DNA of 24,541 bases from a virus (IMGVR_UViG_3300035670_000087); one strand, 5' to 3'; numbered from the stretch's first letter, positions 2,801-24,422 are shown. Made by a program: numbers and translations. Notes: generated by a model from the sequence alone, not told the origin.

Positions 2801-2801
2801 A

Positions 2802-4646: not shown

Positions 4647-4655
4647 ATAATCTCT

Positions 4656-4679
4656 GTCTCAGTTCCCTATCCCTGAGAC
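4656..4679 (-). promoter_or_regulatory. 5'-leader hairpin, perfect 7-bp stem (GUCUCAG/CUGAGAC) with GGAUAGGGAA loop
   Basis: Minus strand reads gtctcag-ggatagggaa-ctgagac-agagattat-ATG. Confidence 0.75.
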
Positions 4680-4689
4680 GGGGGTTTGA

Positions 4690-4702
4690 ATATAAATATC
4701 AA
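4690..4702 (-). promoter_or_regulatory. Putative phage (late) promoter motif TTGATATTTATAT
   Basis: Identical 13-mer at 16971-16983. Both copies are intergenic and upstream of fibre genes. Confidence 0.65.
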
Positions 4703-5425: not shown

Positions 5426-6078
5426 AATCCGTATCTTCCTTTTACAGAATTATAGTTTTGTAATACTTCCGAATCAGATAATGCTATATTATATAATTGA
5501 AAATAAGATATTCTACCATTTAGAAATCTTGATCCCCCTATAGTTCCTATATAATAAAGAGTTCCTGATGAGTATGTGTCTGTTCCCATATACTCTCTTT
5601 GTCCATTTACATATATAGAATGTCTAGCTGATCCAGTTGAGTTATCAAGCCTAAAACATACTTGATACCACCTATTGGCGACAAATATTGTAGACCCACT
5701 TCTCCATCCAGTCCCTGTATACCATGAAGCTCTAGAACTGTATATAGCGGGATACCACACTACATTTGAGCCTCCTACTATATTATTTAAAACCCCAAAT
5801 CCTGGATTTAGCATAATCCAACTTACTATAGTAAAATTACTAGCCACATTTAAAACGGGTGTTGAAAAATAATCATTTATCCCATCTAGATACATTGAAG
5901 ACATACTATTATCAAAGGAATAATACGTTCCATTCTGTAATGTACAATTTCTATTAAATCCACTAATATCTCTCCATGTAGTGCCTGATCCTGGATATGA
6001 GTCTCTCTTGGCTGCATCTAAACTTAATACTAGACCATCTTTTATCGTATTACCATAATATGCTATCCTTCCTGCCAT
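5422..6078 (-). CDS. ConA/LamG-like lectin-domain protein (paralogue 1)
   Basis: GLVLSLDAAKRDSYPGSGTTWRDISG, NRWYQV and YNIALSDSEVLQNYNSVKGRYGL. Confidence 0.85.
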   Translation of the reverse strand: MAGRIAYYGNTIKDGLVLSLDAAKRDSYPGSGTTWRDISGFNRNCTLQNGTYYSFDNSMSSMYLDGINDYFSTPVLNVASNFTIVSWIMLNPGFGVLNNIVGGSNVVWYPAIYSSRASWYTGTGWRSGSTIFVANRWYQVCFRLDNSTGSARHSIYVNGQREYMGTDTYSSGTLYYIGTIGGSRFLNGRISYFQLYNIALSDSEVLQNYNSVKGRYGL

Positions 6079-6081
6079 TAA

Positions 6082-6915
6082 TTAAAATAATTTGTAATAC
6101 CCATTCATATGTCTTACTAGTTGCCCTTCATCTGGACTTTTTGGATACACTATACACTCTATCATTCTACATCTACTAGGATAAAAAGTCCCTCCTAATA
6201 AATAAAATTGAGTGGTATTATAACTTCTTGTTGTGTAGTTTGGTATAGTTGATAATGCGTATGATCCATTATTAACCCCTCTACCTACTGTAGCTCCTTG
6301 TGTATAGGCTTTAACTACTCCCCCATTTACTATACTAGGTCCAAAATTACTAGTTAAGGTGTCTGTCGTATTTCCAGCATTGTCTGAAACAGTTATCCAC
6401 AAAGTTCCATTAGTTAAATCTCTTATCCTTAATGCAAATCTAGGATGAGCTGTTGTATGAGTGGTTCCAAATCCCGTAGCCTGTCCGCTAGCATCATCCA
6501 CATTCGATATCATATAGGAGTATAGATTTTCTCCAGTTATAGATCCTACTGGTACCAGCATTGATTGCCCTGTAGTATAGTTTTGTAAACATGGATTGTT
6601 CAATAGTGTTACAATTGATCCGCTATTTACTATTCTAGGTTGGTTAGCAGCTGTTGTTTGTGTGGCATTTCTGCCATTTCCAGACTGATCATACCACGTA
6701 GTTACAAATCCACTTCCACCCCCTACAAAATCCAGTAATGAATTTTGATCTAAAGAATACCTGTAAAATCCTATATTTTTTGTTGCATTATCTGAACTTC
6801 GTCTAACTGTTATAGCGCTTCCTGTATAATAACTATTTACCTTACGTAAAGAATATGCTACATAGGCTCCGGGAAATAAATCTAATGTTGGACCAGGACC
6901 GTATCTAAAAGCCAT
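6082..6915 (-). CDS. ConA-like fold protein of a different subfamily (arabinofuranosidase-B-catalytic-like N-terminus)
   Basis: AYSLRKV...AITVRRSSDN...IGF and GFVTTWYDQSGNGRNATQ motifs, recognised by eye. Confidence 0.65.
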   Translation of the reverse strand: MAFRYGPGPTLDLFPGAYVAYSLRKVNSYYTGSAITVRRSSDNATKNIGFYRYSLDQNSLLDFVGGGSGFVTTWYDQSGNGRNATQTTAANQPRIVNSGSIVTLLNNPCLQNYTTGQSMLVPVGSITGENLYSYMISNVDDASGQATGFGTTHTTAHPRFALRIRDLTNGTLWITVSDNAGNTTDTLTSNFGPSIVNGGVVKAYTQGATVGRGVNNGSYALSTIPNYTTRSYNTTQFYLLGGTFYPSRCRMIECIVYPKSPDEGQLVRHMNGYYKLF

Positions 6916-6924
6916 AGATATTTT

Positions 6925-9900
6925 TTATATTGCTCTAATAATTGTTTTAACTACCCATCCCACACTGTTAACAGATCCTGTAATCACAAAGTCACTACCA
7001 GATATAATACCTCCAAACATAATATCTGTAGTATCTCCAAACCCATTCAAAGAGGTATCTGTTATATCTACCTGAGATCCTGACCACACAGACATTAAGC
7101 TTCCTGCTCTAATATTAGATCCACTCTTTGCTGTATATTCCACAAACATTCCATCATAAGACGCTGTAGCTATTGAGTATACAGTGAAACTTCCTATTGC
7201 AGTAGTAGATATTCTTTTAGAAGTGTTTAATACTGGGGCATTATAATCTCCTATAAGTGTAGTTGAATCGCTAAATACTTCTAATATAGGAAGACCTGAT
7301 ATATCATTTACACTAAATAATGAACCTGATAAACTATCTACTATAGAGAACAGCTCTCCTTGGCTTCCTTGTATGCTAAATATTGGCTGCGCTGATCCTG
7401 ACCCTACTACGGTTAACCTTTGTGTGCCAGATCCAGACACTAATATTGCAGACGCAGTTATTGTTTGTGCTAGAGTATTACCTACAATATTTAAAGATCC
7501 TGTGATATTCATAGATCCTGTAACTCTATGAGCATCACTTACAACATTACCTATAGCTACACCTGTTTGAGACACTCTTAGCTCTACCGCACTGCCTGTT
7601 GATACTATGAGAGATCCTACAATTGTAGTGTCTCCATTTAGTGCAGATGTTCCTATAATAGTATAGCTTCCGCTTACAGTTATACTACCAGTGAACTGAT
7701 GCGTATCTGCTGTGCTGTCTCCAAACTTAGTGCTTCCGCTAGTTACAATTACTGAGGATGTTATGTACTCTACTATTAATGTTTGTGCATTTATAGTATT
7801 AGTTACTACAAGAGATCCAGTTATTGTAGTGCTTCCAGATATTGCTACTGATCCGTTGTTTACTAAAAGTACTGCTGATGCTGTAGCTGCATTTAGACTT
7901 CCGTCAGACACTACTACTCTTCCTTGTGCAGCATTGCTTATAGTATTGAAACCAGTACCAGAAGTACCACTAGATCCTGTTGATCCTGCTGAGCCCGATG
8001 TACCGCTAGATCCTGATGTTCCGCTAGTACCTGTAGAGCCTGAGCTTCCAGAAGTACCACTAGATCCTGTTGATCCACTAGAACCTGAGCTACCAGCAGA
8101 TCCAGATGTTCCTGTAGAACCAGATGAACCAGAAGATCCTCTAGTTCCTGAAGAACCGCTTGTACCTGTACTACCAGATGATCCAGAAGTTCCTGTTGAT
8201 CCAGAACTTCCTGTTGATCCAGAACTTCCAGATGTTCCAGTAGATCCTGATGAACCAGATGTTCCTGAAGTACCAGATGAACCAGAAGTTCCTGTAGAAC
8301 CTGAAGAACCAGATGTACCAGTAGATCCACTACTACCTGATGAACCACTGCTTCCACTAGTTCCACTAGTTCCTGATGTACCAGTAGTTCCTGCTGAACC
8401 AGATGTACCGCTAGTTCCAGAAGAACCAGTAGAGCCTGAGCTTCCAGAGCTACCGGAAGAACCTGATGTACCCGAAGTCCCAGTTGTACCCGATGTTCCC
8501 GAAGATCCTCTAGTTCCAGAGCTACCACTTGTACCGCTTGTACCAGAACTTCCGGTAGAACCACTTGAACCGGATGAGCCAGATGTACCGCTAGTTCCAG
8601 TTGATCCTGAAGATCCAGAGGACCCTGATGAACCGCTAGTTCCTGTAGAACCAGACGATCCGCTTGATCCTGAGGTACCGGATGTACCTGTGGAACCAGA
8701 TGATCCAGAACTTCCACTAGATCCTGATGAACCGGATGTGCCTGTGCTACCACTTGATCCTGATGTTCCGGTAGAACCTGAAGAACCAGATGTTCCAGAA
8801 GAACCAGTTGAGCCTGAGCTACCGCTAGTACCGGTAGATCCTGATGTGCCACTAGTACCACTTGATCCTCTTGTACCTGAAGTACCGGAACTACCTGATG
8901 AGCCAGAAGATCCTGCTGTACCTGAGGTACCACTAGTTGCAGCAGTGTAGGAAGTACCATTTATGAACAATGATCCACTTATTCTAACACTTCCTGTAAA
9001 TTCATGAGTATTATTAACAAGTGTTCCAAAATGGGTAGAACCTGTAACCAGTTCTACACTAGCAGTTATAGTTTGTACTATTAAAGTCTGAGCTGTTAAT
9101 GTTCCTCTTACAGTAAGATTATCTGCTGAAGAGGCTGTCAATGCGTTAGTTGCCCAACTAGAAGTGCCTATTAAGTTACCTACAAAAGATCCGGTGAATG
9201 ATCCTGATATAGAAGGTACTGTCTTTGTGTTTTGCCACTCAGCTCCGTTGTACACTAATAGATCTCCTGTTGCTACATTTGAAATTGCTACATCAGATAA
9301 ATCATTTAATGATACTGCTGCAGCCGCTCCACCACCACCTCCAGTAGTGTTTCTAAACGATCCAGCTTGTATTATTTTTACATCTGTTGTGTTTGATAAA
9401 TCAGTTGTGCCTGATTTTATGACTATATATCCTAAAAATATAGCTTGTGTTGCTGTATTATTATTTTCCTCAAATGTTTCGTAAGGAAGATTGGATAAAG
9501 CTGTTGCTATAGAATTATAAATTTCTCTACCATAGTAAACACCTATTGTGTTAGGTTGATTAGGGAAGTAAAATACTCTTTGTATTGAATATTGTCCACC
9601 AGGAGCAGCAGATAATCCTGTTGATGTTGTTGGAGTATTATAGTTTCCAGGATCTAATACAGTTGTTCCTGTAGTAGTTACAAAAACAGATCCTGATTTA
9701 TAATACCTAAATACGTTTGGTGCATTATACCCTGCATCCGATACTAAAGAAGGTTTATTTGCATCATTAACGTAATTTCTACCTAAAGAGTATGATTTAC
9801 CTTCAGTTCTATTTAGAGAAAGACTGGAACCGCTAGGTTCTATTGTATGTCCAGATATCTTTATTCCACCAAAAGCTCTAATAAATTCATAAGTTTGTTG

Positions 9901-12900
9901 TGCAATTCCATAAGAAGTTACACTAAAGGTCTTAAATAAACTTATTGTTGATAGATTTGGATGTACTACAGAGCCTATTTGTATGTATTGATCATACTCT
10001 AGATCAGTAGGGGCACTAGTCTGTTGTATTAAACTAGCATTAGCATCTATTAATAACCAAGTAGTGTCATAAGTATTTAAGTATGTAGGAGTTACATTTG
10101 TAAATTGTGGCCAACTAATATATTTAATTGTTGGGTAGGGTTCTCTACTTGCAGTTGTTGCATTTAAAGTTACAATTATACCAGAACCAGAAGATACATT
10201 AAATGTAGTTCCTCCTATACTTCCACTAACAACTCCCCCAGTTAGTATACCAGTGTATATATTCCCTTCTAACCAACGAAGTCTTGTTGTATTGTTATAT
10301 CCGTCTCCGTTTTGAGTAAAATATAGGTCTCTTGTTGAGCCGCTTACGTATATATAAGAAGCAGTTACTGACTGATCTATGCTTGTATTTACTGGATTGA
10401 AACGTATATACCCATTGTGTACAGTATCACCGTATATTCTAACTGTAGGTGTTCCAGTCGATAAGGAACCTGATATAATAATACTACCTGATAAGAATGT
10501 ATTTCCTAATAAAGTGTTATTTCCTACCTGAGTAGTAGATCCTGATACTAATAAAGACCCAGTGAGAGTTAAGGAGTTATTAGCTAAGCTATATACTAGA
10601 TTGGTAGATGCTGTAGCTGCATTTAAGCTGCCGTCAGACACTAATACTCTGCCTAACCCTGCATTACTTATTGTGTTAAATCCTGTGCCCGAAGTTCCTG
10701 ACGATCCTGTAGAACCAGAGGAGCCGCTAGAGCCAGATGATCCTGATGTACCAGTACTGCCAGATGAACCAGAAGTACCGCTAGTACCTGTTGACCCAGA
10801 GCTTCCTGATGTTCCGCTTGAACCAGTAGATCCAGAAGACCCACTAGATCCTGATGAACCTGTTGATCCACTAGTTCCACTTGTCCCAGTACTGCCAGAT
10901 GAACCAGAAGTACCGCTAGTACCTGTAGTTCCTGATGTACCAGAAGTTCCTGAAGATCCTCTAGTACCTGATGTACCACTGCTACCGGACGAGCCAGATG
11001 ACCCTGCTGAGCCAGAAGTACCAGAAGATCCGGATGTTCCTGATGAACCTGTTGATCCAGATGAACCAGAAGATCCAGAAGTTCCTGTAGAACCAGAAGA
11101 TCCTGATGAACCAGAAGATCCTGATGAACCTGAGCTTCCAGAAGTGCCACTAGTACCAGTAGAACCGCTAGAACCTGAGCTACCTGATGATCCTGCTGTA
11201 CCTGAGGTACCAGATGAACCAGTAGATCCAGATGAACCTGAAGATCCAGAAGTTCCAGTAGAACCAGATGACCCTGAGGAGCCGCTTGTACCTGATGTAC
11301 CGCTAGTGCCAGTTGAACCAGAAGATCCAGAGGATCCTGAACTACCAGAGGTGCCTGATGTACCTGAAGTAGCTGCTGTATAAGAGGTACCGTTTATAAT
11401 TAAAGATCCAGTTATGCTTACAGACCCTGTAAATTCATGGGTATTTGATGGTATACTACCAAATTTAGTAGATCCTGTAACAAATTCTACCGAAGATGAT
11501 ATAGTTTGTACTACTAAAGTAAGCGCATTAATAGTATTAGTTACAGTTAAAGACCCTGTTATAACAGTACTGCCAGAAACAACTACGTTTCCATTGTTTA
11601 CAGTCAATACTGCGGAGGCTGTTGCTGCATTTGTTGAATTATCAGCAAGCAATACTCTGCCTATAGCAGGGTTATTTATTGTGGTGAACCCTGTACCAGA
11701 TGAACCAGAAGATCCTGCTGATCCAGAGAACCCCGAAGATCCGGATGTACCACTAGTTCCTGTAGAACCGCTAGAACCTGAGGTTCCAGAACTTCCAGAA
11801 GTTCCTGTACTACCAGACGATCCTGAAGTGCCGTTTATTCCTGATGTTCCAGAAGTACCTGTACTACCGCTTGTTCCGGTAGACCCGCTGCTTCCAGAGG
11901 TACCTGATGATCCGGTAGATCCAGAACTACCACTAGATCCAGAAGTTCCGCTTGTACCAGTTGATCCACTACTTCCAGAGGTTCCAGATGTGCCAGAAGT
12001 TCCACTAGTTCCTGTAGAACCAGATGATCCAGAACTGCCACTAGATCCAGAAGTTCCCGAACTACCTGATGTTCCAGATGACCCGCTAGTTCCTGTAGAA
12101 CCAGAACTTCCACTTGTCCCTGAGGTTCCTGAAGAACCCCTAGTTCCTGAACTTCCTGAAGAACCACTAGTTCCTGTTGATCCAGAACTTCCTGATGATC
12201 CGGATGTGCCACTGGTTCCTGCTGAACCTGAAAATCCAGAGGTGCCGCTAGTTCCTGTGGAACCAGATGATCCTGATGTGCCAGAACTACCGCTTATTCC
12301 GCTAGTTCCAGAAGATCCTGATGTTCCGCTTGTACCTGATATACCTGAAGTTCCTGTAGAGCCACTAGACCCTGCTGAACCTGAAGAGCCTGATGTGCCA
12401 CTACTTCCTGTAGAACCAGATGAACCAGCACTACCACTAGAACCAGACGTACCACTAGTGCCTGAAGTACCTGTAGATCCACTAGATCCTGAAGTTCCGG
12501 AAGTTCCTGCTGTACCAGAGGAGCCAGATGTACCATTTACACCGCTAGTTCCAGAAGTACCAGAAGTGGCAGCTGCAAAAGAAGTTCCATTAAGGAATAA
12601 AGATCCTGAGATTGTAACAGATCCTGTAAATTCGTGTGTATTAGATAATAATGTTCCGAAATGAGTTGATCCAGTTACAAATTCTACAGACGATGTTATA
12701 GTTTGTACTATTAAAGTCTGAGCTGTAATAGTATCTGTTACTGTTAAAGATCCAGTTATTGTAGTACTTCCTGATATTGCTAACCCTGATCCGTCATATA
12801 CTATAGCAGATGACGCTGTTGCCGCATTTGTTGAGCCGTCTGCTAATAAAACTCTACCTACAGCAGAGTTGCTTATTGTATTAAATCCTGTTCCTGATGT

Positions 12901-15900
12901 ACCAGCTGTTCCACTAGATCCTGTTGAACCTGAAGATCCTGCAGATCCTGAGGTTCCACTTGTACCTGATATACCAGAGGTTCCTGCTGTGCCGCTAGAC
13001 CCACTAGTGCCAGATGTACCACTTGATCCTCTTGTGCCACTTGTACCAGATGAGCCAGAAGACCCGGAAGTACCTGATGAACCCGCTGATCCTGAAATTC
13101 CTGAAGAGCCTGATGTTCCTGAAGAACCAGATAAACCAGAAGTTCCAGTAGAACCGGATGATCCTGAGGTACCACTAGAGCCACTAGAGCCTGAAGAGCC
13201 ACTACTACCAGAAGTTCCAGTAGAACCGGATGAACCAGAGCTTCCAGTTGAACCAGAAGATCCGGAGGTGCCTGAAGAACCTGCTGTACCTGCTGTACCG
13301 CTTGTACCAGTAGATCCACTAGAACCAGAAGAGCCTGATGAACCTGATAAGCCGGAAGTTCCACTTATACCAGCTGTACCAGAGCTTCCTGTACTACCAC
13401 TAGACCCGGATGACCCGCTTGCTCCAGAAGATCCGGAACTACCAGATGAACCAGAAGTACCAGTAGAACCTGAACTGCCAGAAGTGCCTGATGATCCAGT
13501 AGAACCACTTGACCCACTACTACCTGCTGTACCAGATATTCCTGAAGAGCCGCTAGTTCCTGTTGATCCACTACTGCCTGAGGAGCCACTAGTTCCTGTA
13601 GAACCAGATGAACCACTAGAACCTGAGGTACCAGATGTGCCCGATGTACCAGAAGTTCCGCTAGTTCCTGTAGAACCACTAGAACCTGAAGAACCAGTAG
13701 ATCCGCTACTACCTGATGATCCAGAAGTGCCGCTAGTACCAGTAGAGCCCGAAGAACCAGAACTACCTGCTGTACCAGACGATCCTGTAGAGCCGGAGCT
13801 TCCGCTAGATCCAGATGTACCACTTGTACCGGATGTACCTGTACTACCACTAGATCCAGATGACCCACTAGAACCTGAGGTTCCAGAAGTACCTGATGTA
13901 GCTGCGGTATATGATGTGCCGTTTATTATTAAAGATCCGCTAATGCTAACACTACCAGTAAACTCATGAGTGTTATTTATAGTTGTACCAAAATGAGTAG
14001 AGCCTGTAACAAACTCTACGGAAGAAGTTATAGTTTGTACTATTAAAGTCTGAGCTGTAATAGTATCTGTTACTGTTAAAGATCCAGTTATAAAAGTGCT
14101 TCCGGATATAGCTATTCCTAATCCATTATACACTATAGCAGAAGAGGCAGTAGCTACGTTAGTGCTTCCATCGGATAACAAAACTCTTCCTACAGCAGCA
14201 TTACTTATAGTATTAAATCCTGTTCCTGATGTACCCGATGATCCAGCACTGCCGCTAGATCCACTAGAACCTGATGATCCAGCAGTTCCAGATGTGCCTG
14301 TAGAGCCAGAAGATCCACTGCTGCCAGAAGATCCAGAAGTTCCTGTAGAGCCGGAGCTTCCGCTAGATCCAGATGTACCACTTGTACCGGATGTACCACT
14401 AGATCCTGCAGAACCAGAAGAACCTGATGATCCAGATGTACCAGAAGTACCTGTAGATCCGCTACTTCCAGAGCTTCCAGACGTACCTGTAGACCCGCTA
14501 GAGCCACTAGATCCTGCTGATCCACTTGATCCACTTGTTCCTGCACTGCCTGAAGTACCCGCACTACCTGAAGAGCCACTAGAACCACTTGTTCCGGAGG
14601 TACCTGAAGAGCCTGATGTTCCTGATGAACCGCTACTACCTGCTGTACCAGATGATCCAGAACTACCACTAGATCCGCTTGTACCTGTTGAACCGCTAGA
14701 TCCGCTTGTACCAGAACTTCCAGAAGTGCCAGTAGATCCTGCTGTGCCAGATGTACCTGAAGTTCCAGTTGATCCAGATGAACCAGAAGAGCCTGCGGTA
14801 CCACTACTCCCTGCTGAACCTGAAGTTCCTGAAGAGCCTGAAGAGCCGCTAGTTCCAGAAGATCCTGTTGATCCTGAACTACCAGATGATCCAGAAGTGC
14901 CTGAGGTTCCTGTTGATCCACTTGATCCAGAGGAGCCAGATGAACCAGAAGTGCCACTAGTTCCGGTAGAACCAGAGGAGCCAGAAGTCCCACTAGAACC
15001 AGCAGTTCCAGAAGAACCCGATGATCCTGTAGAACCAGATGAACCAGAACTTCCTGATGTGCCAGATGTTCCGGCTGATCCAGATGTTCCAGAGGTGCCA
15101 GTTGATCCACTGCTACCGCTAGATCCTGAAGAACCAGAACTTCCTGAAGTTCCACTAGAACCCGCTGTGCCTGATGTGCCACTTGTGGCGGCTGTGTAAG
15201 AAGTTCCGTTTATTATTAAAGATCCGGATATATTAACAGATCCTGTAAATTCGTGAGTATTTTCTATAACAGTGCCAAAATGAGTAGAACCAGTAACGAA
15301 TTCTACTGAAGATGTTATAGTTTGTACAACTATAGTTTGAGCCGTGAGAGTTCCCCTTACTAAAAAATCATCTGCGTAAGAAGCAGTAAAAGTATTTAAA
15401 GCCCAACTAGACGTACCATGCAAAGATCCAGTGATACCTTCTGTGACTATTAAAGATCCTGTTAACTCATGTAAGTTGTTATAATTTAAAACTAACTTGG
15501 TATTAGCATAAGAATCAAATCCCCCAACAAAAAAAGTTAAAGGTTGATCTTCTGATGCATTACCTATATGAAAATGGCTAGCAGTAGAGTATAGGTAGGC
15601 ATCGTTAGGACCTCCTATAGAATTAAGAATATTATAATTAGAACTGTTTATTCCTAAGTTTACATAGTTTTTAGTTTCAGTTCCTTCATCATTTGTTGCA
15701 ACTATGTCAGAAGAAGCTGAACTTCCTGTATTTTCGTTTTTTAAATTAAACTGAGAGTAGTTATCTATATTTGCTAACCCAGTTATTAAATTAAAAGTAT
15801 TTGAGTTAGCTTGTCTTATCCTTAAAGCTTCTGGGTGGTTTCCATCTACTTCATCTGTATTAATACCTACGGTACCGTTCTCATTTATCCACACTTTACC

Positions 15901-16914: not shown

Positions 16915-16930
16915 ATGTATGGAACGGTTC

Positions 16931-16975
16931 TAGTATATACCAAACAGCTTTCGCTGGCCTATATAGGCGTATATA
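16931..16975 (-). promoter_or_regulatory. Structured 5' leader of the giant fibre gene (adjacent mini-hairpins or a three-way junction)
   Basis: Minus strand: tatatac-GCCTatatAGGC-CAGCgaaaGCTG-tttg-gtatata, with a GNRA (GAAA) tetraloop. Confidence 0.55.
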
Positions 16976-16983
16976 AATATCAA
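16971..16983 (-). promoter_or_regulatory. Putative phage (late) promoter motif TTGATATTTATAT
   Basis: Identical to 4690-4702. Confidence 0.65.
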
Positions 16984-16999
16984 CTATTCCTTACATATT

Positions 17000-19078
17000 T
17001 TATAGAAATTGAGATATTCTATCTATGACCTTTGTTGCGCTTATAGTTTTAGTGCATTCAAATTGTCTGTCTGTGTTTTTGTGCCTAGGACACCAATTCC
17101 AATCCCCAGCATCTAGCCTATCTGTGTTAAAACAACTTTGACAAATGTGCTCTTCTGGTGATATTCTTACACAATCTTCAAATTCTGTTTTAGGATCAGT
17201 AAATCCAGAAATTAAACAGGTATTAGTTCCTACAGCCCAAGATAACCAACTTAATCCGCTACTTATTCCTATAAAAAGAACAGACTTCTGTAATGTCTGT
17301 ATTACAGTTTCGATATTATTATTGAAAAGGTACTCTACACCTTTTGGATGTTTATTCCCCATATACCCATCCTCCTCTTTAGAGATCAAGGCAACTCTAT
17401 ATCCTTTAGATTTTATATAATCTACTAGTTCCTGCCATCCTGTTGGGTTGTTCCAATATTTAGTTTGGGCTGTGCCGTGTATAGCAATGCTGACTAAACA
17501 TTCTTTTTCAATATTTTTAGAAAGTTTTATTTTAGGTTTGACTTCTTTAAACTCCAAACCTAATATATCAGAAGCAGTTTTTTGTAAAGATTGGTTTCTA
17601 AAATCAAAAGGATTTTTATTTTCGTCAAATTCTCCATTTTCTTTATAAAACCACCCTATTGTATACATTGAATACAGGTTGTGAACAGTTGTTCCCGGTT
17701 TTACAAATTCTATCTCTGGGTAGTTGTCTTCAAAAAAATGATTCCAAAAAGTAGAACAGATAACTTTACAGTTGTGCTCCTTTCTAAACTCTTCTACATA
17801 AGGAAACCAAGCTAATGTATCCCCCAAAGCTTTAGAATCAAGAGCTATATATACTCTTTTTTGATTTAAATCTAAATAGTAATCATAAGAATTTATGCCA
17901 TCATCTACAAAAATATTCCAATTCTTATAAGATTTAATAGAAGTTTTTACCCAATGGTTTCTTCTTATTGTATCTGTATGCAAGGTTTTATTAGTATCTG
18001 TATCTATAAATTGTATGTTATACTCTCTATCGGGACCTCCTACTATTTCAAAAAACGCCCCTTCTATAAAGTTTATATTAAACTTAGGCGTTTCTGGTTT
18101 AGAAGGTATCCTTAGTATTTTTGTATTATTGTATCCACTTATCAATTGATCTTTTAAACTCATAGTATATTTTTTTAATAACTCTTTAACTCTGTTGTCC
18201 CAAGATAAATCGACTGCTTGTTGTCTTGCTTTTTTTGAATAATACGTATGTACTGTTGGATCTATTAGCTTACCAACAGCAGCAATTCCTTCATCTACAT
18301 TTCTATCTACTATGATCATTCCTGAAAGATCTGATCCTTTTTCATAAGTTCCTACTACTGGAAGTCCAGATGCCATAGCTTCTAACAAAGTTAGATTAGG
18401 ATGGCCAGCTTCTAATTGAGAAAAATGCAGGAATATACTATGCTCTTTGTAGAGATCTCTTAGTTGTTCCTCATCCAAATTATAAAGTATACTTGAATTT
18501 TTGTACTCTAGTGGATATTTTTTAAAGTATGACTGATTATTTAGGGGTCCTGCTATAGTTATAGGCAAGTTATAATGTTTAGCTATTTCTATAGCATATC
18601 CAAAACCTTTCCTGTCCTCTGCTTGATCGTGAATAAATCCGTTATTTGCTACACATAGTAACTTATGTTCTTTGTAATCTGAAGGAGTAAAGTAATCTAC
18701 GTTGACTCCATGAGAAAAATACTCAGGAATTCCTTCAAAATAGTCTACAAGATATTTTGCTGGTACAAATGCTTTTTTTGCATTTTTTATAGCCTGTAAA
18801 TTCTCTTTGTATGCATGAGACTCTTTTCCGTATAAATAAGCATGGTGATCATGCATAGTAAAATAGTACGGAATGCCTCTTTCATATGCGATGTTTGCCA
18901 AATTTGCCACATGTATGTGTACAACATCATAATCTTTTACATCGTCTAAATACTCAATTCTAGAATCATGTCCTAGCTTTAGTAAAGCATTGTGAGTTTC
19001 CCATATTATCTTTTCCACAGCTCCCCAACCATTAGGAGGTATAGGAATTAATCCTGGGGTTACGTTTACTACTTTCAT
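17000..19078 (-). CDS. Fusion: GT4-like (GT-B) glycosyltransferase + TibC/AAH-like (autotransporter O-heptosyltransferase family) protein O-glycosyltransferase
   Basis: N-half has IPPNGWGAVEK, RKGF and EAGHPNLTLLEAMASGLPVV (GT4). C-half has SKALGDTLAWFPYVEEFRKEHNC, FIGISSGLSWLSWAVG, LISGFT and CQSC...DWNWCPRHK...FECTKTI (four Cys, as in the TibC iron finger). Confidence 0.85.
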   Translation of the reverse strand: MKVVNVTPGLIPIPPNGWGAVEKIIWETHNALLKLGHDSRIEYLDDVKDYDVVHIHVANLANIAYERGIPYYFTMHDHHAYLYGKESHAYKENLQAIKNAKKAFVPAKYLVDYFEGIPEYFSHGVNVDYFTPSDYKEHKLLCVANNGFIHDQAEDRKGFGYAIEIAKHYNLPITIAGPLNNQSYFKKYPLEYKNSSILYNLDEEQLRDLYKEHSIFLHFSQLEAGHPNLTLLEAMASGLPVVGTYEKGSDLSGMIIVDRNVDEGIAAVGKLIDPTVHTYYSKKARQQAVDLSWDNRVKELLKKYTMSLKDQLISGYNNTKILRIPSKPETPKFNINFIEGAFFEIVGGPDREYNIQFIDTDTNKTLHTDTIRRNHWVKTSIKSYKNWNIFVDDGINSYDYYLDLNQKRVYIALDSKALGDTLAWFPYVEEFRKEHNCKVICSTFWNHFFEDNYPEIEFVKPGTTVHNLYSMYTIGWFYKENGEFDENKNPFDFRNQSLQKTASDILGLEFKEVKPKIKLSKNIEKECLVSIAIHGTAQTKYWNNPTGWQELVDYIKSKGYRVALISKEEDGYMGNKHPKGVEYLFNNNIETVIQTLQKSVLFIGISSGLSWLSWAVGTNTCLISGFTDPKTEFEDCVRISPEEHICQSCFNTDRLDAGDWNWCPRHKNTDRQFECTKTISATKVIDRISQFL

Positions 19079-20004
19079 TTTCTTTTTCCGTATATAAATC
19101 CAGCAGTACTATTTTCATCAGAGTCTCTATACTCAACTTCATAACCCTCTTTTACAAGTTTTTCGAATATGTATTTAGGATCTCCATGAAATTCTATAAA
19201 AAACTGATCTATTTTTTTATAGTAGTAGCTTGATAAGTTTTTTAAAACTGAATACTCTGCGCCTTCTATATCTAATTTTAAAAGATCTATTTTATCCTCT
19301 ACTTGTAAAATAGAATATATTGTTATTGTTTCTACAGATATAGTATGTTTCTCAAACTGTGTATTGTAGGTGCTTATAGTACTAGCTACTGAACTTCCCA
19401 AACACAAGTCAAAAAGCGCTAATTCTATTTTATCGTGTAGTGCTTTATTAATACAAATAACATTAGGTTGGTTTATAAAATTTTTATATAAACAGTGAAA
19501 AGGCTCAGGATCTGGTTCTATACTATAAATTCTTTTTGCTCCTTTATGACTAGCTAAGAGGGTAAAAAATCCTACATTAGCACCAGCATCTATCACTACT
19601 CCAGAAAAATCAATCCCTTTACATAAATCAGAATAAAAAAAATCTACATAAGAAGGCCCAACCATATCATGATTAGGAGTAATAAATGGGCTTTTTATTA
19701 TTGGTTCGGTATTGTTTAAGTAAAAATTTTCCGATTGTAACAATCTTCTATTTGGACCATATACTTTAAAAGTAAACCCAGGATAAGTGCCACTTTTCAG
19801 CACTACTTTCATTAACTTTTCTGATAGCGGTGCTACCCATCCTTTAAAATCTCTATTAAACTCGACATTTTCCCATGTATAATAAGCACAGTCTAGGTAT
19901 ACATCAGAGACAACAATACTTCCTAAAAATTTAGAATCTGTTATTGATTCAAAAGTAAAAAACCTCAATTTTTTATCAAAATGTATTTTTAAGACGTTAC
20001 TCAC
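19075..20004 (-). CDS. FkbM-family SAM-dependent methyltransferase with an N-terminal accessory domain
   Basis: VIDAGANVGFF, IYSIEPD, IDLLKLDIEGAEY and FIEFH motifs. GTG start overlaps the upstream stop. Confidence 0.85.
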   Translation of the reverse strand: MSNVLKIHFDKKLRFFTFESITDSKFLGSIVVSDVYLDCAYYTWENVEFNRDFKGWVAPLSEKLMKVVLKSGTYPGFTFKVYGPNRRLLQSENFYLNNTEPIIKSPFITPNHDMVGPSYVDFFYSDLCKGIDFSGVVIDAGANVGFFTLLASHKGAKRIYSIEPDPEPFHCLYKNFINQPNVICINKALHDKIELALFDLCLGSSVASTISTYNTQFEKHTISVETITIYSILQVEDKIDLLKLDIEGAEYSVLKNLSSYYYKKIDQFFIEFHGDPKYIFEKLVKEGYEVEYRDSDENSTAGFIYGKRK

Positions 20005-20830
20005 TCTCTTGAATTTTTAGTAAATAATCTACTGCTTGTTCCATATCATTTTTATCTTTAAAGCCATGATAAAGTAACACTTCTTTGGAATCATGAATAT
20101 ACTCCCAATCAGTACCAAAAGCATCATAGCTATTGCCTCCAAATTTATTTTTTGCTTTTGCCTCTTCTACTTCTTTTACTGTTTCTATTCTATGTGTATT
20201 TACAAAAGCAAATCCTAAATTTTTTGTTGCTCCTCTTTTCCAAAGACATATGTTAAAAGGGGTCTCATCTGCATACGGAAAATAATCCCATGCTCTATCC
20301 AACAAATATTTATTTTTACAGAACGATGTGTATTCTTCAAAAAAATCTCTACAATTTTCATTAAAAGAATAAAAACAAGACCACACATATCTCTGGCTTC
20401 TTTCTTTGACATTACAGTATTTCATGAGAAGGGTCTCGTCAAAAATCACTCTTACTCCGTTTCTTTCTTCCCACATAAACGGATAATCAAAAGCTCCATA
20501 ACTAGCTAAAGGATAAGATTCTTTATGTTTTATTTTATTAAAATCAAAATTAGAAGAAAATAACACATCCGTATCAGTAAAAGCGTAGTCCTCTCCTGGA
20601 AATATATCCATAGTAAATAGAGATAGCTCTGCTTTATAATAATGATATGTGGGGTATATAGGATTGTGCTGTATCTTTATGCTCTGTAAATTTTTAAAAA
20701 AAAAATTTGTTTTAAATCCTATGGTATAATAAACTATTTTTACATCAGAAGTTATTTTATTTGATAAAGATCTTATACAAGATATGGCCTGATGTTCACA
20801 ATTTTTGTCACTGTATAATATTAATATCAT
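19997..20830 (-). CDS. Putative GT-A-fold glycosyltransferase
   Basis: YKAEL...FTDTDVLF (DxD motif), ADETPFNICLWK and a C-terminal YHG.K, plus its position in the GT cluster. Confidence 0.65.
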   Translation of the reverse strand: MILILYSDKNCEHQAISCIRSLSNKITSDVKIVYYTIGFKTNFFFKNLQSIKIQHNPIYPTYHYYKAELSLFTMDIFPGEDYAFTDTDVLFSSNFDFNKIKHKESYPLASYGAFDYPFMWEERNGVRVIFDETLLMKYCNVKERSQRYVWSCFYSFNENCRDFFEEYTSFCKNKYLLDRAWDYFPYADETPFNICLWKRGATKNLGFAFVNTHRIETVKEVEEAKAKNKFGGNSYDAFGTDWEYIHDSKEVLLYHGFKDKNDMEQAVDYLLKIQESE

Positions 20831-20831
20831 A

Positions 20832-23390
20832 TCACAAAGGTTTAAAAGTATACCACTGTCTCCAATAAGGCTCTTCAGTAGTTTCGTATAATACTAAATT
20901 TTTATCTTTTACAAACTCATTAACAGCTTTCCTTACTCCAAATTTTCCAGCATAAATAGGATCTCCTTGTCCTGTCAACCAAATATCTCCATCGTCTGGT
21001 ATATAATCGTCCCCACAAAACAACCCTCCTTTTTTGATTTTAGGCCACCAAGCTACTATGTCTTTTGTGACTCCTTCGTAAGAATGATCAGCGTCTATAT
21101 AGATAAAATCAAAATACTCGTCAGGAAACATATCTGCGGATTTTACACTATCCATTCTTATTATATGAGCTCTATTTTCCCAAGGTTTAATATTTTTACA
21201 AGTTTCAATTAGACAATCGTAATGATATTGATCGTCTCTACCGTTCATATCTACATAGTGTCCTATATGTCTCCAGGTATCGATCAAAAATAATTCTCCT
21301 TTATGCCACCTCTCTAATATTATTTTTGAATAATCCCCTCTTAAAACACCTATTTCAACACCTCTACCTTCGGGATATAGTTCATTTACTAAAGAAGCCA
21401 ATTCTCTTTTGTTTACTGCTGATTTATTGTCTAAAGTCTCTTTTAAGTTCTGTATAGGAACTTCTATACATTCTTTACTTGCAAATATAAATCCCCCAGA
21501 AGCGTGCATATCTCTTACTTCAAACTTGTAACCGGCATTTTTTATATTTTCTATTAGTTTTAATACATCTTCATTGTAAGTTCTACCAGCTAATAAATGA
21601 TATTCTACAAGTATATTATCTATTTTTTCAAAATCACTAAAGTCTAGAGAATCAAATAAAGGGTACTCTCCCGTTTCTATATCAACTTTTAAAAGACTTA
21701 TTCTATCTATATTGTACTCAGAAATAAAAGATTTAAAAGATATAGATTTTACCTTATAAGAAGAGTTTAGTTGTCCATAACTAGCTATTGACGATATTGT
21801 AGAGTTTTCCTGATCTACAAAAAAATCAAGGTCTCCATCTTTATCAGACATAGCTTTATCTATTATGATAATTTTAGAATCGTCTACAAAAGTATCTTTT
21901 AAAACCTTCAAAGCTTTTACATTAGGCTCAACTGCGTATAGTTTGGAAAAATTAGAAACGTGTTTAGCATACTCAATCCACAAACCTATGTTAGCTCCCA
22001 CATCAACTATAACATCTAGATTTCTATTTTTTATGTATTTATCATATATTTTATCTATAAAGAACTCAAAATAGTTCATATAGGTTGGCTCTGTGTAGTT
22101 CTTTATTGTTACTTTAGGTTTCGATCTAGAAGGGTGTTTTATTCTTATTTCTTTTGAATATATTAACTCGTTGTTTTGATAAAACTCAACTAATAATCCC
22201 CCAAAATCAGGATCTGTTTCAAAATCTATAAAAGATTTAGGAGTTGGTTGTATCCAATATTCTACATTAGAAAAGTAGTCTTTATATTCTGCAGACCATA
22301 TAACAGACTCAGAATCTATTTCTCTTACAGATACAATTATATTTTTATGAGATCTCTCTGAGCTAAAATATACTGTGTTGTTTGAATTATCGTACCATAC
22401 TTTAAATGTAGGTTTATCATTCATATTTAAGGATTTTATAATCATATTAAAGTTACTCTCTTTATTAGAATTTAAGTAGACTATGTTATCGTATTTATCA
22501 AAATAATTTAAATACACGTCTAAATTATAAATCAAAGAAGGCTTTTTCCAGCTTATTGCCTCTCTAATAACCAATGGCATTGTCTCCTTATCTCCTATAT
22601 TTCCTCTAGAGGTAAATAAAAACAGATCTGCCATTTCATAAAAAGTATCTACATCACTTCTCTCCCCCCACCATTTGCAATTATCAGGAAAATCCTTCAT
22701 TAATGGTTCCCAATAATGTCTAAAATTATCTGCTTGGTTACCAATAAAATGAAACTGTATTGAATAATCTTTTAAAGCTTTTGCATACTCTATAACCTCT
22801 GCTTGATTCTTTCTTGGTGTGAATAGTCCTACAGTTATTACATGTTTTTTATTAGGATCCAACCCTAAATCTAATAGAGCTTGATTTCTAGATTTAGTAG
22901 GTGTTCTATATTCAATAGGATACTCAACTAATTCACAAGGTATGCCAGCTAATTTTTTATACTCCTCTACTTGGTACTGACTTACCATCATAAACTTATC
23001 AGGAAAATGCATTTTATTTTCTACCTGATAGCTAGAATCATGAGATGTTTCTACTATAACGTACTTCCTATCCGAAGAATATAACTTCCTAGCTACTTCA
23101 TAGGACATAAACATTTCAGGAATCTCTTGTAAATGTATTATGTGTGGTCTGTACTCTTCAATTATTTTAAATAAATGATGCTTGTCTTGGTCTAAAGTTA
23201 TTAAGTTTTTACCTAATAAATTAAGAATTTTATTCCTTTGAACTACCAGGTGTCCTCCAGTTACATCATCCCATTCTGCGCAATAAACATCAAAAACATC
23301 TATTAAACATTCTATCTGTTTATACAAATATTGAGGCATTCCCCCTGTTGACAAATGAGGGGCGATGAATAAAATAACTTTTTTATCCAT
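20832..23390 (-). CDS. Triple fusion: GT4-like glycosyltransferase + FkbM methyltransferase + class I (Methyltransf_24-like) methyltransferase
   Basis: GT4 motifs PHLSTGGMPQY, VGLFTPRKNQ and ETMPLVIREA. FkbM motifs VDVGANIG and LLKVDIETGEY. Class I motifs GVEIGV and FDFIYIDADHSYEGV..DI..W.PK.K.GG...GDDY. The ATG at 23390 is preferred over the TTG at 23411 given in the ORF track. Confidence 0.85.
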   Translation of the reverse strand: MDKKVILFIAPHLSTGGMPQYLYKQIECLIDVFDVYCAEWDDVTGGHLVVQRNKILNLLGKNLITLDQDKHHLFKIIEEYRPHIIHLQEIPEMFMSYEVARKLYSSDRKYVIVETSHDSSYQVENKMHFPDKFMMVSQYQVEEYKKLAGIPCELVEYPIEYRTPTKSRNQALLDLGLDPNKKHVITVGLFTPRKNQAEVIEYAKALKDYSIQFHFIGNQADNFRHYWEPLMKDFPDNCKWWGERSDVDTFYEMADLFLFTSRGNIGDKETMPLVIREAISWKKPSLIYNLDVYLNYFDKYDNIVYLNSNKESNFNMIIKSLNMNDKPTFKVWYDNSNNTVYFSSERSHKNIIVSVREIDSESVIWSAEYKDYFSNVEYWIQPTPKSFIDFETDPDFGGLLVEFYQNNELIYSKEIRIKHPSRSKPKVTIKNYTEPTYMNYFEFFIDKIYDKYIKNRNLDVIVDVGANIGLWIEYAKHVSNFSKLYAVEPNVKALKVLKDTFVDDSKIIIIDKAMSDKDGDLDFFVDQENSTISSIASYGQLNSSYKVKSISFKSFISEYNIDRISLLKVDIETGEYPLFDSLDFSDFEKIDNILVEYHLLAGRTYNEDVLKLIENIKNAGYKFEVRDMHASGGFIFASKECIEVPIQNLKETLDNKSAVNKRELASLVNELYPEGRGVEIGVLRGDYSKIILERWHKGELFLIDTWRHIGHYVDMNGRDDQYHYDCLIETCKNIKPWENRAHIIRMDSVKSADMFPDEYFDFIYIDADHSYEGVTKDIVAWWPKIKKGGLFCGDDYIPDDGDIWLTGQGDPIYAGKFGVRKAVNEFVKDKNLVLYETTEEPYWRQWYTFKPL

Positions 23391-23421
23391 TATAACATTA
23401 TTTAATAACAAATATACGGAA

Positions 23422-23604
23422 TTATTCTGTCTCTATCAAAGAAGCTTTATATTTTCTTCCTGTAGGATCTGCAGCTTGTAATTCAGCAGCTTTGTCTACT
23501 GCCTCTTGCTCTGTTGGGTATATATACTCAGGGTCTTCTGGGTTTAATTTTGATACCCAAATTTGATCTACGTTTGGAATAAATTGCATGATTACTTTGT
23601 ACAT
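23422..23604 (-). CDS. Small hypothetical protein (60 aa)
   Basis: ATG-TAA ORF that fills the gap between neighbours on the same strand, with a plausible composition. Confidence 0.7.
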   Translation of the reverse strand: MYKVIMQFIPNVDQIWVSKLNPEDPEYIYPTEQEAVDKAAELQAADPTGRKYKASLIETE

Positions 23605-23615
23605 TTTATTGAATT

Positions 23616-24422
23616 TTAAGTATTATTATAAGGAGACCAGCTATCACAATAGTATAAACTAGTCTTTGCTATACTAGATGCTTTTCCTATATATTCATAC
23701 ACAGTAGTAGTTAGCGCAGTCAATGCTATAGTAACATTTCCGGTAACAACAAAAGAGAAACCACCTCCAGAATCGTATGCAGTTCCACAATATTGCTGGC
23801 TAGTTGTTATACAAGTAGAACTTCCTACATTTGGAACAAAAAATACAGGAGTGTTATAACTCCATGATCTCATTCCTATATTAAATATTGTTCCGCCTGG
23901 TACAGAAGATACGGTTCCTAATAAATTACAAGAGGTACTAGATATATTACCTCCTATTAAAGTCAAGGTTGTCGGAGCTCCTAACCAATAGTACGCCCTA
24001 ACATTAGGTTCTGTACCAGATCCTGGAGGTATTATAGCATTTGGGATTGCTTGTAAAGATGCGTATACTGTTACTGTGTAATTTGGTGGGGGAGTAACTG
24101 TTGGAACATTAGTCACGGTAGGAGTAGGTGTACTTGTAGGTGCAGGGGTTGGTGTATTAGTTGGGGGGGAAGCACAAGATCCTAAATTAGTAATAATTAT
24201 ATTAGTTTGTGGAGTAACACTACATGCACATATTTCTAATAATACTCCGGATCCTACTGGTACAGTCCTACCAATCCCTCTACAATCTACATATGCAACT
24301 GTTAAAGAAACCCCTCCAACGTTTTCTATACTATATGCATCACAGGGACATGGAGTAGGTGCTGGGGTAGGCGTTGGAGTCGGGGTTATTGGACAGTTTA
24401 CAGTAAAAGTAAAAATAGACAT
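23616..24422 (-). CDS. Pro/Thr-linker, Cys-rich putative virion surface protein (268 aa)
   Basis: PITPTPTPTPAPTP and PPTNTPTPAPTSTPTPT linkers flank a Cys-containing module (C..Y....Y.DC.G....ICAC). The C-terminal domain is beta-rich. Confidence 0.75.
   Translation of the reverse strand: MSIFTFTVNCPITPTPTPTPAPTPCPCDAYSIENVGGVSLTVAYVDCRGIGRTVPVGSGVLLEICACSVTPQTNIIITNLGSCASPPTNTPTPAPTSTPTPTVTNVPTVTPPPNYTVTVYASLQAIPNAIIPPGSGTEPNVRAYYWLGAPTTLTLIGGNISSTSCNLLGTVSSVPGGTIFNIGMRSWSYNTPVFFVPNVGSSTCITTSQQYCGTAYDSGGGFSFVVTGNVTIALTALTTTVYEYIGKASSIAKTSLYYCDSWSPYNNT

Follow-up and report, generated by a model that had tools for sequence, protein, structure and literature searches.

The giant fibre encoded in a 24,541-nucleotide stretch of viral DNA (IMGVR_UViG_3300035670_000087, hereafter the window) is very probably sugar-coated, since a subfamily of TibC/AAH-type (BAHT) glycosyltransferases and proteins with Gly-Ser/Thr repeats go together both in phages and in bacterial chromosomes. 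The phage is large, T4-like and uncultured; the window covers its fibre module, in which four enzyme genes lie 5' of the giant fibre gene. Judging from the sequence comparisons below, we consider it rather likely that these enzymes constitute a cytoplasmic protein O-glycosylation line for this fibre and for a second, shorter one, with the BAHT domain initiating on the repeat serines and the other domains extending and methylating the glycan.

The Collagen-Like Fibres

The reading frame of the giant fibre is open throughout, and its product contains exactly 496 Gly-X-Y triplets (regular-expression search, runs of at least five triplets) in five blocks of 75–111 triplets. The X position is taken by Ser in 296 triplets, by Thr in 187 and by other residues in 13; the Y position holds 381 Ser, 74 Thr, 33 Ala and 8 others. 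With Ser and Thr at ~95% of the X and Y positions of the blocks, the earlier estimate of about 496 triplets, nearly all Ser/Thr at X and Y, was accurate. Pro is found at none of the 992 X and Y positions, so the imino acid (Pro/Hyp) signature of collagen is missing from the repeats. The other signature, the long unbroken Gly-X-Y periodicity of the collagen repeat family (PF01391), is present, and the Pfam Collagen profile matches the fibre with E = 1e-193. Given such strict periodicity, and matches to PHROG tail-fibre families, the rods would be trimeric triple helices. The first four are separated by beta-rich modules that are full of T-G-S and S-G-S turns (Table 1).

The second fibre, which the earlier note does not list, is of the same kind. 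The two fibre genes are followed by five paralogous lectin-fold genes and one for a virion-structural-like protein (together 697–6915, minus strand); their products are probably fibre accessories. Between the end of the last enzyme gene (17000) and the start of the giant fibre gene (16914) lies the gap of 85 nt that had been described before. It contains a promoter-like word, TATTTATA (16972–16979), that also precedes the second fibre gene (4691–4698). In a motif search of the window the word was not enriched across the window as a whole. The search gave no promoter-like word for the enzyme operon, while the fibre has its own, a point that tells against the proposed glycosylation line.

Table 1. 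Features of the window; the repeat blocks of the giant fibre are also given by residue number.
Feature	Position	Strand	Size	Basis or detail
Five paralogous ConA-like lectin-fold (Laminin_G_3) proteins	697-1416, 1416-2108, 2108-2800, 4703-5425, 5422-6078	-		
Second fibre	2802-4646	-	614 aa	113 Gly-Ser/Thr triplets; Pfam Collagen E = 3.5e-50; PHROG tail-fibre families
Virion-structural-like protein	6082-6915	-	277 aa	
Giant fibre	6925-16914	-	3,329 aa	Open reading frame; repeat count; Pfam Collagen
Fibre N-terminal domain			583 aa	Three internal repeats
Fibre repeat block 1	14212-15165	-		Residues 584-901; regex count
Fibre repeat block 2	12880-13878	-		Residues 1013-1345; regex count
Fibre repeat block 3	11683-12546	-		Residues 1457-1744; regex count
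Fibre repeat block 4	10675-11349	-		Residues 1856-2080; regex count
Fibre repeat block 5	7945-8916	-		Residues 2667-2990; regex count
Fibre beta-rich spacer modules			111 aa	Between blocks 1-4
Fibre middle domain			586 aa	Between blocks 4 and 5
Fibre C-terminal domain			339 aa	After block 5
Intergenic stretch before the giant fibre gene	16915-16999	-	85 nt	Sequence read
GT4-BAHT fusion	17000-19078	-	692 aa	GT4 residues 1-315; BAHT residues 336-690 (DNA 17003-18073)
FkbM-family methyltransferase	19075-20004	-	309 aa	PF05050, 67 bits; TIGR01444, 96 bits
GT-A-fold glycosyltransferase	19997-20830	-	277 aa	AlphaFold2 and Foldseek
Three-domain enzyme (operon gene 1)	20832-23411	-	859 aa	GT4 residues ~23-330; FkbM methyltransferase 470-630; Methyltransf_24 685-803; Pfam and NCBIfam matches, all over cut-off

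The Enzyme Operon and Its BAHT Domain

The operon (17000–23411) encodes, in order, a GT4-FkbM-methyltransferase protein, a GT-A-fold protein, an FkbM protein and a fusion of GT4 with a TibC/AAH-type domain. The inventory drawn up earlier, of a pair of GT4 domains, three methyltransferase domains, a GT-A protein and a TibC/AAH-like domain, was recovered in full; of the methyltransferase domains, two are FkbM and one is Methyltransf_24, and the TibC/AAH-like domain is C-terminal. The GT4/methyltransferase, GT-A and FkbM genes accompany the BAHT enzyme in related loci, and homologues of the 859-aa enzyme (cluster 17) are placed alike in the cassettes of 10 related viral loci. The GT-A protein has no match in Pfam, PHROG or NCBIfam that would place it in a sequence family. 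Its AlphaFold2 model (mean pLDDT 92.5) is closest in Foldseek to GT6 alpha-1,3-Gal/GalNAc transferases (E ~1e-8, TM ~0.5, probability 1.0), and a DxD motif, D86-x-D88, is invariant in its family (26 homologues). On the evidence of the modelled fold it is a GT-A glycosyltransferase, as its earlier label had it, with a GT6-like fold; at least 176 homologues occur in metagenomes, all unnamed.

The HMM searches proposed in the earlier note gave GT4 and FkbM matches and, for the last enzyme, a match to TIGR04414, the autotransporter O-heptosyltransferase family, of 295.1 bits against a curated cut-off of 200, with residues 348–690 covering profile positions 24–373 of 374. The C-terminal domain also matches the TibC structure 4rap (E = 8e-58) and is ~36% identical to the TibC/AAH family over 350 residues, which bears out the TibC/AAH-like assignment. 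In TibC, Asp-110 is the catalytic base, Thr-226 and Lys-230 are ligands of the beta-phosphate and Trp-305 binds heptose O4 (PMC4358343). All four have equivalents in the 692-aa protein (Asp-110 is D420), and they are conserved in 81 of 81 phage homologues bar one Thr-to-Ser change. The four cysteines of the 1Fe-0S iron finger (Cys-339, 342, 358 and 370) are likewise invariant in the window protein and all 81 homologues.

The domain differs from TibC at a few positions. Arg-286 of TibC, which contacts adenine N1 and whose R286A mutant is inactive (PMC4358343), is replaced by Val; the position is V, I or T in 79 of the 81 phage homologues and V or I in all bacterial homologues adjoining a repeat gene, while all autotransporter-type homologues have Arg. 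At the tip of the beta-hairpin thumb, Phe-265 and Val-266 give way to Tyr and Met in the phage clade, and these too are hydrophobic. Pro-300 is Ser, as at the corresponding position of the AAH examined in PMC4358343 (Ser-294).

Co-occurrence of the Enzyme and the Repeats

Relatives of the BAHT domain were found on 309 viral contigs. Starting from the enzyme, a whole-record search found Gly-Ser/Thr repeats in all five records from the window's own group, of which G002 is a complete genome, and in 15 of 34 further records, where the negatives are mostly small fragments and all three records of at least 90% completeness are positive. The four near-complete enzyme-bearing genomes all carry such repeats, usually within 0.2–20 kb of the enzyme, a typical spacing in genomes of up to 300 kb. 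The reverse comparison used 49 viral records picked solely for Gly-Ser/Thr blocks, with TIGR04414 over its cut-off counted as a match. The enzyme was found in 26 of them, including 10 of 13 at completeness of 60% or more and five of five at 90% or more; it is missing from three fairly complete repeat-bearing records. As a yardstick, only four of 50,697 deposited phage records matched in a search with the enzyme domain (LR756501/LR756503, LR756504 and Mel-JY01). In the last of these, the cultured Microcystis phage Mel-JY01, a Gly-Ser/Thr collagen-like ORF lies 1.7 kb upstream of a GT4...BAHT fusion. There are looser arrangements too: no repeats lie within 15 kb of a homologue in one megaphage, and in several relatives the cassette is 10–40 kb away from the fibres. 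Much of the phage co-occurrence could also reflect shared ancestry in one aquatic T4-like radiation.

A similar association is seen in the independent setting of bacteria. Among homologues that lack Arg-286 (Methylococcales, Polaromonas/Burkholderiales and Binatia), 17 of 20 loci have, at a distance of ~1 kb or less, a small ORF with Gly-Thr-Ser repeats that encodes a lipoprotein or carries a signal peptide, against none of 12 for homologues that have it (TibC, AAH, Selenomonadaceae and Acidisphaera; Fisher p = 2e-6). These are clean two-gene pairs without other glycan genes nearby, and that of Methylobacter luteus is surrounded by housekeeping genes, not by a prophage. What the partner proteins have in common is the Gly-Thr-Ser tract, not a beta-helix. 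A lack of genomic co-occurrence had been named in advance as a finding that would speak against the idea; the opposite is seen, and the inference that the phage decorates its own fibres is supported by comparative genomics, through the two-way viral association and the bacterial pairs.

Acceptor and Donor

It is worth asking whether the fibre might be glycosylated elsewhere, on serines of its beta-structured parts (the 111-aa modules and the terminal domains), with the rods left bare. The x-T-G-S-x and x-S-G-S-x turns there resemble the classical BAHT strand-loop-strand motif after which TIGR04414 is named, classical BAHTs recognise a folded beta-helix, and TibC modifies only Ser, at sites in short beta-helix loops (PMC4358343). 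Moreover, in phages with a stand-alone enzyme the adjacent giant fibre (2,300–2,477 aa, with an S74 chaperone) has many such turns and no Gly-X-Y run. Yet genomes of this group have Gly-Ser/Thr repeat genes elsewhere, TibC also acts on free peptides (PMC4358343), the enzyme turns up in records picked on the repeat tract alone, and the tract is all that the bacterial partners share, which makes the beta-structured acceptor unlikely. We would give still less weight to the idea that the cassette consists of auxiliary genes with which the infecting phage alters glycans or glycolipids of the host surface (LPS, capsule or S-layer glycan), for example to block superinfection, and that its place near the fibre is only a matter of genome architecture. 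O-antigen and polysaccharide clusters typically contain GT4, GT2, FkbM and CmcI-type domains, PHROGs file cyanophage GT4 homologues as auxiliary metabolic genes, and in several relatives the cassette's neighbours are genes for the tail sheath and tube, not for fibres. However, the BAHT family is known solely as protein serine glycosyltransferases (PMC4358343), and a glycolipid target would explain neither the two-way association with the repeats nor the bacterial pairs.

The donor sugar is most likely an NDP-heptose. In 65 viral loci the stand-alone enzyme is usually followed by genes resembling heptose-7-phosphate kinase and heptose-1-phosphate adenylyltransferase, the two halves of HldE, as best family matches that score below the curated cut-offs. 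No rfaE-type gene was found in the records of the window's closest relatives, one a complete genome, and no gmhA in the phage genomes checked, complete ones included. Given the change of Arg-286 to Val here, and to V, I or T in nearly the whole subfamily, ADP-heptose as donor is not assured. The same change, with the inactivity of the TibC mutant and the lack of heptose-activation genes in the window's group, would suit a domain that is no longer a heptosyltransferase and either uses a UDP- or GDP-donor to transfer a different sugar (a hexose) or acts chiefly as a dodecameric ring that chaperones the repeats or scaffolds their assembly. This seems improbable: the invariant catalytic Asp, beta-phosphate ligands and heptose-O4 Trp favour an active transferase whose sugar sits in a similar pose, and the HldE-like genes directly adjoin the enzyme in many phages.

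Relation to Known Systems

Sugars on collagen-like repeats have precedents. BclA of Bacillus anthracis carries O-linked rhamnose-anthrose on Gly-Pro-Thr repeats, and in the Gly-X-Thr(Gal) repeats of Riftia cuticle collagen the sugar takes the helix-stabilising place of hydroxyproline. Both resemble the proposal made here in having Gly-X-Y repeats with a sugar on a Y-position hydroxy amino acid. In both, however, that residue is Thr, whereas Y is mostly Ser in the window and BAHTs are Ser-only; the enzyme families are unrelated, and the BclA repeats contain Pro whereas those of the fibre have none. Among phage proteins, the side-tail-fibre proteins EPclA and EPclB of E. coli O157:H7 prophages have collagen-like triple-helix segments of a conventional and shorter kind, and we know of no glycosylation genes linked to them.

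The closest enzymatic parallel is TibC/AAH itself (TIGR04414; 4RAP; PMC4358343), which shares with the window enzyme the N-terminal barrel and GT-B core, the key catalytic and ligand residues and the four-Cys iron finger. In tibC-tibA and aah-aidA, too, the enzyme gene adjoins that of a long, serine-rich, repetitive surface protein. That neighbour is a beta-helical autotransporter, whereas here it is a collagen-like Gly-Ser/Thr fibre and, in the bacterial pairs, a small secreted Gly-Thr-Ser protein; no autotransporter occurs in the window or the related loci. Unlike TibC and AAH, the window domain is fused behind a GT4 domain, inside a viral glycosyltransferase/methyltransferase operon. Mycobacteriophages, as far as they are described in PMC12619734 (citing Freeman et al. 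2023, Cell Host Microbe), use their own glycosyltransferases, encoded near structural genes, to put O-linked glycans on virion proteins. Their enzymes are of other families and modify the C-terminal tails of actinophage capsid and tail-tube subunits, whereas the system described here is BAHT-type, with a collagen-like fibre as putative target, and is known from its genes.

A Possible Glyco-Collagen

In the O-glycosylation line that we favour, glycosylation would begin at repeat serines, with the first sugar attached by the BAHT domain of the 692-aa protein. The likeliest acceptor is the Y-position Ser followed by Gly, since every partner protein conserves it. Extension of the glycan would next fall to the two GT4 domains, fused and second, and to the GT-A-fold enzyme, and the three methyltransferase domains may cap it by O-methylation. 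The benefit might be a triple helix stabilised in place of hydroxyproline, or a hydrated coat with a protective or adhesive role.

We read the association as adding a new class of substrate to a known enzyme family, through serine O-glycosylation of collagen-like repeats. More tentatively, and as a possibility that we would not yet lean on, the fibres may represent a “glyco-collagen”, previously unrecognised, in which a dedicated BAHT subfamily puts Ser-O-linked glycans, heptose-based and in part methylated, in the place of hydroxyproline. Gly-Ser/Thr chains without proline could then assemble into stable triple-helical rods with lengths of hundreds of nanometres. Such a material would be widespread in the fibres of aquatic T4-like phages, and would also occur in small secreted or lipid-anchored proteins of methanotrophs and Burkholderiales.

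The heptosyltransferase-like domain and the fibers

The C-terminal domain of the 692-aa enzyme scores 295 bits with TIGR04414 (autotransporter strand-loop-strand O-heptosyltransferase, or BAHT), whose curated cut-off is 200, and the sequence of the TibC crystal structure matches it with E=8e-58. In an alignment with TibC and AAH from plasmid records, and with residue roles taken from PMC4358343, the domain keeps Asp-110, the catalytic base (TibC numbering; D420 in the 692-aa enzyme), Thr-226 and Lys-230, which bind the beta-phosphate, Trp-305, which binds heptose O4, and the four cysteines of the iron finger. Val replaces Arg-286, the residue which in TibC hydrogen-bonds adenine N1 and whose Ala mutant is inactive (PMC4358343). 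The stereoselectivity position, Pro-300 in TibC, is Ser in the 692-aa enzyme, and the AAH of PMC4358343 has Ser-294 at the matching position.

All genes of interest in the window lie on the minus strand, and the enzyme shares its operon with three others. The earlier note had counted two GT4 domains, one GT-A protein, three methyltransferase domains and one TibC-like domain here; this inventory is correct, because the profile matches give the domains and the 277-aa protein has a predicted GT-A fold (pLDDT 92.5, nearest to the GT6 alpha-1,3-Gal/GalNAc transferases) and a DxD motif that is invariant among 26 homologs.

Features of the window and their positions
Feature	Position	Strand	Length	Remark
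Ser/Thr-rich protein, function unassigned	23616-24422	-	268 aa	
GT4 + FkbM + Methyltransf_24 fusion	20832-23411	-	859 aa	
Protein without family match	19997-20830	-	277 aa	
FkbM methyltransferase	19075-20004	-	309 aa	
N-terminal GT4 + C-terminal heptosyltransferase-like domain	17000-19078	-	692 aa	
TATTTATA	16972-16979	-		58 nt upstream of large fiber gene
Large fiber	6925-16914	-	3,329 aa	85-nt gap after the 692-aa enzyme gene
Laminin_G_3 genes	697-2800 and 4703-6078	-	each ~230 aa	five paralogs
TATTTATA	4691-4698	-		45 nt upstream of second fiber gene
Second fiber	2802-4646	-	614 aa	

The collagen-like reading of the large fiber holds to the triplet: the count is 496 Gly-X-Y triplets exactly, distributed over five blocks of 75-111, and Pfam Collagen matches with E=1e-193. 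Ser or Thr fills the X position in 483 of the 496, the Y position holds 381 Ser, 74 Thr and 33 Ala, and none of these triplets contains proline. Blocks 1-4 are spaced by three near-identical beta-rich modules of 111 aa, blocks 4 and 5 by a 586-aa middle domain, and N- and C-terminal domains flank the whole. The second fiber has 113 triplets of the same composition. Within residues 1-583 of the large fiber there are also three internal repeats of ~110 aa with the motif NYSQFNLxNxNxG...SSDIVAT..GTE, and the N-terminus, MAQKLKLRRS...GEIA, resembles one that we take to be common to many phage fiber proteins.

The large fiber is followed by a virion-structural-like protein and two lectin-fold (Laminin_G_3) proteins, the second fiber by three more; these five may be receptor binders at the fiber tip or on side branches. 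The short sequence TATTTATA precedes both fiber genes; it is absent from the 23412-23615 gap upstream of the enzyme operon and is not enriched over the window as a whole. T4-type genes for portal, terminase, sheath and tube are present in relatives of the phage, which is therefore taken to be a large T4-like phage.

Co-occurrence of enzyme and repeat in phages

The earlier note had proposed to test across phage genomes whether such enzymes accompany Gly-Ser/Thr repeats, and this co-occurrence was found among IMG/VR records in both search directions. Relatives of the enzyme domain are present in 309 IMG/VR contigs. When the genes of 80 loci were clustered, two architectures emerged. Fifteen loci have a GT4-BAHT fusion like that of the window, and there the GT4/methyltransferase fusion, the GT-A protein and FkbM make up a conserved cassette with it. 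The other 65 have a stand-alone BAHT of about 384 aa, most of them in one conserved gene row: giant S74-chaperone fiber, GT4/methyltransferase, BAHT, HldE-like adenylyltransferase, HldE-like kinase, terminase and portal.

A Gly-Ser/Thr fiber lies within 10 kb of the enzyme in only 6/80 loci, all closest relatives. This weak local signal is, however, an effect of flank size, and searches of whole records reverse the picture. In the group of the window's phage the repeats are present in 5/5 records, and in its complete genome of 182,846 bp the fibers and the cassette are about 40 kb apart. Further enzyme-bearing records have repeats in 15 of 34 cases, including 3/3 at ≥90% completeness; those without are mostly fragments less than 40% complete. 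The reverse test used loci chosen solely by their likeness to a Gly-Ser/Thr block; matches covered at least 599 stretches, from which 78 loci were kept, and 49 of their records were searched for TIGR04414. The profile scored above its cut-off in 26/49, in 5/5 at ≥90% completeness and in 10/13 at ≥60%, in ORFs of 361 to 1,455 aa. The distance between enzyme and repeat gene is usually 0.2-20 kb, and the genomes are as large as 300 kb. Phylogenetic non-independence inside the phage sample is a real caveat on all of these counts.

Other genes recur beside these enzymes. The protein at L075:12672-15434 (L-numbers are our handles for loci fetched from the searches) and its homologs in clusters 11, 26 and 41 are 921-1,490 aa long, begin with ~160 residues resembling NMN-adenylyltransferase-like nucleotidyltransferases, and are conserved just downstream of the BAHT and HldE-like genes in the stand-alone-enzyme group. 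Upstream of the cassette, at L010:3-1326, are two tandem paralogous genes, the first of which matches a 2OG-Fe(II) oxygenase (PF13759). Six relatives of the window's phage have tandem paralogs of this type beside the cassette, and these genes may encode hydroxylases for the substrates of the cassette.

Among deposited phage records, one search matched the enzyme domain in only 4 of 50,697 (LR756501/LR756503, LR756504 and Mel-JY01). Mel-JY01 (PP395634.1) is a cultured Microcystis phage. An ORF for a Gly-Ser/Thr collagen-like fiber of at least 1,016 aa (L001:2-3049, plus strand) runs off the start of its record and ends 1.7 kb upstream of a 1,226-aa GT4...TibC (BAHT) fusion. The deposited CDS at 739-2298 on the minus strand, rich in Pro, Val and Glu, was rejected as an antisense artefact; the real gene appears to be the plus-strand fiber. 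The 1,226-aa gene was deposited as 'methyltransferase FkbM'; Pfam gives GT4, TibC_1st and GT9 only, with no FkbM match.

Enzyme and repeat pairs in bacteria

Scanning the alignment of phage enzymes against one genome per prokaryotic species gave 42 loci, whose homologs fall into two clades in the alignment and a quick tree. The clade that keeps Arg-286 comprises TibC, AAH, Selenomonadaceae and Acidisphaera, and its members lie beside large autotransporter-like proteins. Val, Ile, Thr or Leu takes the place of Arg-286 in Methylococcales, Polaromonas and other Burkholderiales, one Binatia MAG and a few phage-like contigs. A Gly-Thr-Ser/Ala repeat ORF lies within about 1 kb of 17/20 homologs lacking Arg-286, whereas a Gly-X-Y ORF is near none of the 12 that bear it (Fisher p = 2e-6).

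The repeat ORFs of the Methylococcales, Burkholderiales and Binatia loci are small, about 100-330 aa; a Sec or lipoprotein signal peptide opens them and a small globular domain closes most. The possibility that the minus-strand Gly-X-Y ORFs are antisense artefacts was rejected on the strength of these good starts and globular ends. An enzyme gene adjoining its substrate gene is the classic BAHT layout. The isolate Methylobacter luteus has this layout with a putative substrate of a new kind (L165:6920-9122); the pair is flanked by housekeeping genes of the mfd/queA and miaB/phoH types, and no further glycan genes were seen around it. Comparable pairs, in which an Arg-286-less BAHT stands next to a small Gly-Thr-Ser/Ala repeat protein that is secreted or a lipoprotein, occur in L163-L175 and L180-L182. 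The pairs look like an undescribed protein-glycosylation system of methanotrophs and Burkholderiales. In three gamma- and betaproteobacterial MAGs (L187, L200, L202) the BAHT homologs have in-frame stops and have lost the iron-finger cysteines while still adjoining Gly-Thr-Ser repeat ORFs; in these genomes the pair seems to be in decay.

Proposed mechanism and alternatives

We propose that the BAHT domain would glycosylate serines of the repeat in the cytoplasm, before or during fiber assembly, that the fused GT4, the second GT4 and the GT-A enzyme would extend the glycan, and that the FkbM and Methyltransf_24 domains would methylate it. Judging by the bacterial pairs, the BAHT alone would be the core of the system; the other enzymes are probably phage additions, whose order of action we infer. 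In TibA, TibC modifies Asn-Ser*-Gly-Gly; it accepts free peptides as well and leaves Thr unmodified (PMC4358343). The Y-position Ser of the fiber, followed by Gly, resembles this site.

It is worth pointing out that the acceptors may instead be Ser residues outside the rods, in the beta-rich T-G-S/S-G-S turns of the non-collagen modules, or that the target of the cassette may be a host glycan. Both alternatives are disfavored by the bacterial pairs and by the phage sample chosen by repeat. The feature that every partner shares, in phages as in bacteria, is the repeat, with Ser at 65-75% of Y positions and Thr or Ser at X. DNA glycosylation was set aside: no cassette member resembles DNA-base glycosyltransferases, and we know of no nucleic-acid activity in the BAHT family.

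The BAHT-like domain may also have changed its donor, or work mainly as a scaffold, although the invariant catalytic set speaks against a dead enzyme. The donor is most likely an NDP-heptose, because the heptose- and phosphate-binding residues are kept and genes for an HldE-like kinase and nucleotidyltransferase flank the enzyme in many phages (and are present in 4/5 complete genomes checked). The nucleotide, and even the sugar, could differ, since Arg-286 is lost, the HldE-like matches score below the curated cut-offs, gmhA was not found in the complete phage genomes checked, and records of the window's own group have no HldE-like genes.

Significance

To our knowledge, the only described role of BAHT enzymes is a virulence-linked one, the modification of autotransporter adhesins in a few Proteobacteria, and the open-access literature searched held no description of a phage BAHT or of a glycosylated collagen-like phage fiber. 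The nearest precedent for phage self-glycosylation is the mycobacteriophage system for capsid and tail tube (cited in PMC12619734). New here are the association statistics, the Arg-286 signature and the bacterial pairs. On sequence grounds there is a large sister subfamily of BAHTs, diagnosable by loss of the adenine-reading Arg, which goes together with collagen-like Gly-Ser/Thr repeats in hundreds of uncultured phages, one cultured cyanophage and free-living bacteria. An established enzyme family would thereby gain a substrate class and a biological setting that are new to it, and the BAHTs would extend further in substrate range and in biological reach. Mel-JY01 and Methylobacter luteus are available organisms in which the glycosylation idea is directly testable, as it is by co-expression in E. 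coli. The system is a candidate answer to how proline-free collagen-like phage fibers are stabilized, and would be a second route of virion glycosylation, unrelated to the mycobacteriophage one. If true, glycan-coated fibers would bear on phage adsorption, persistence in water and recognition by grazers or host defenses.
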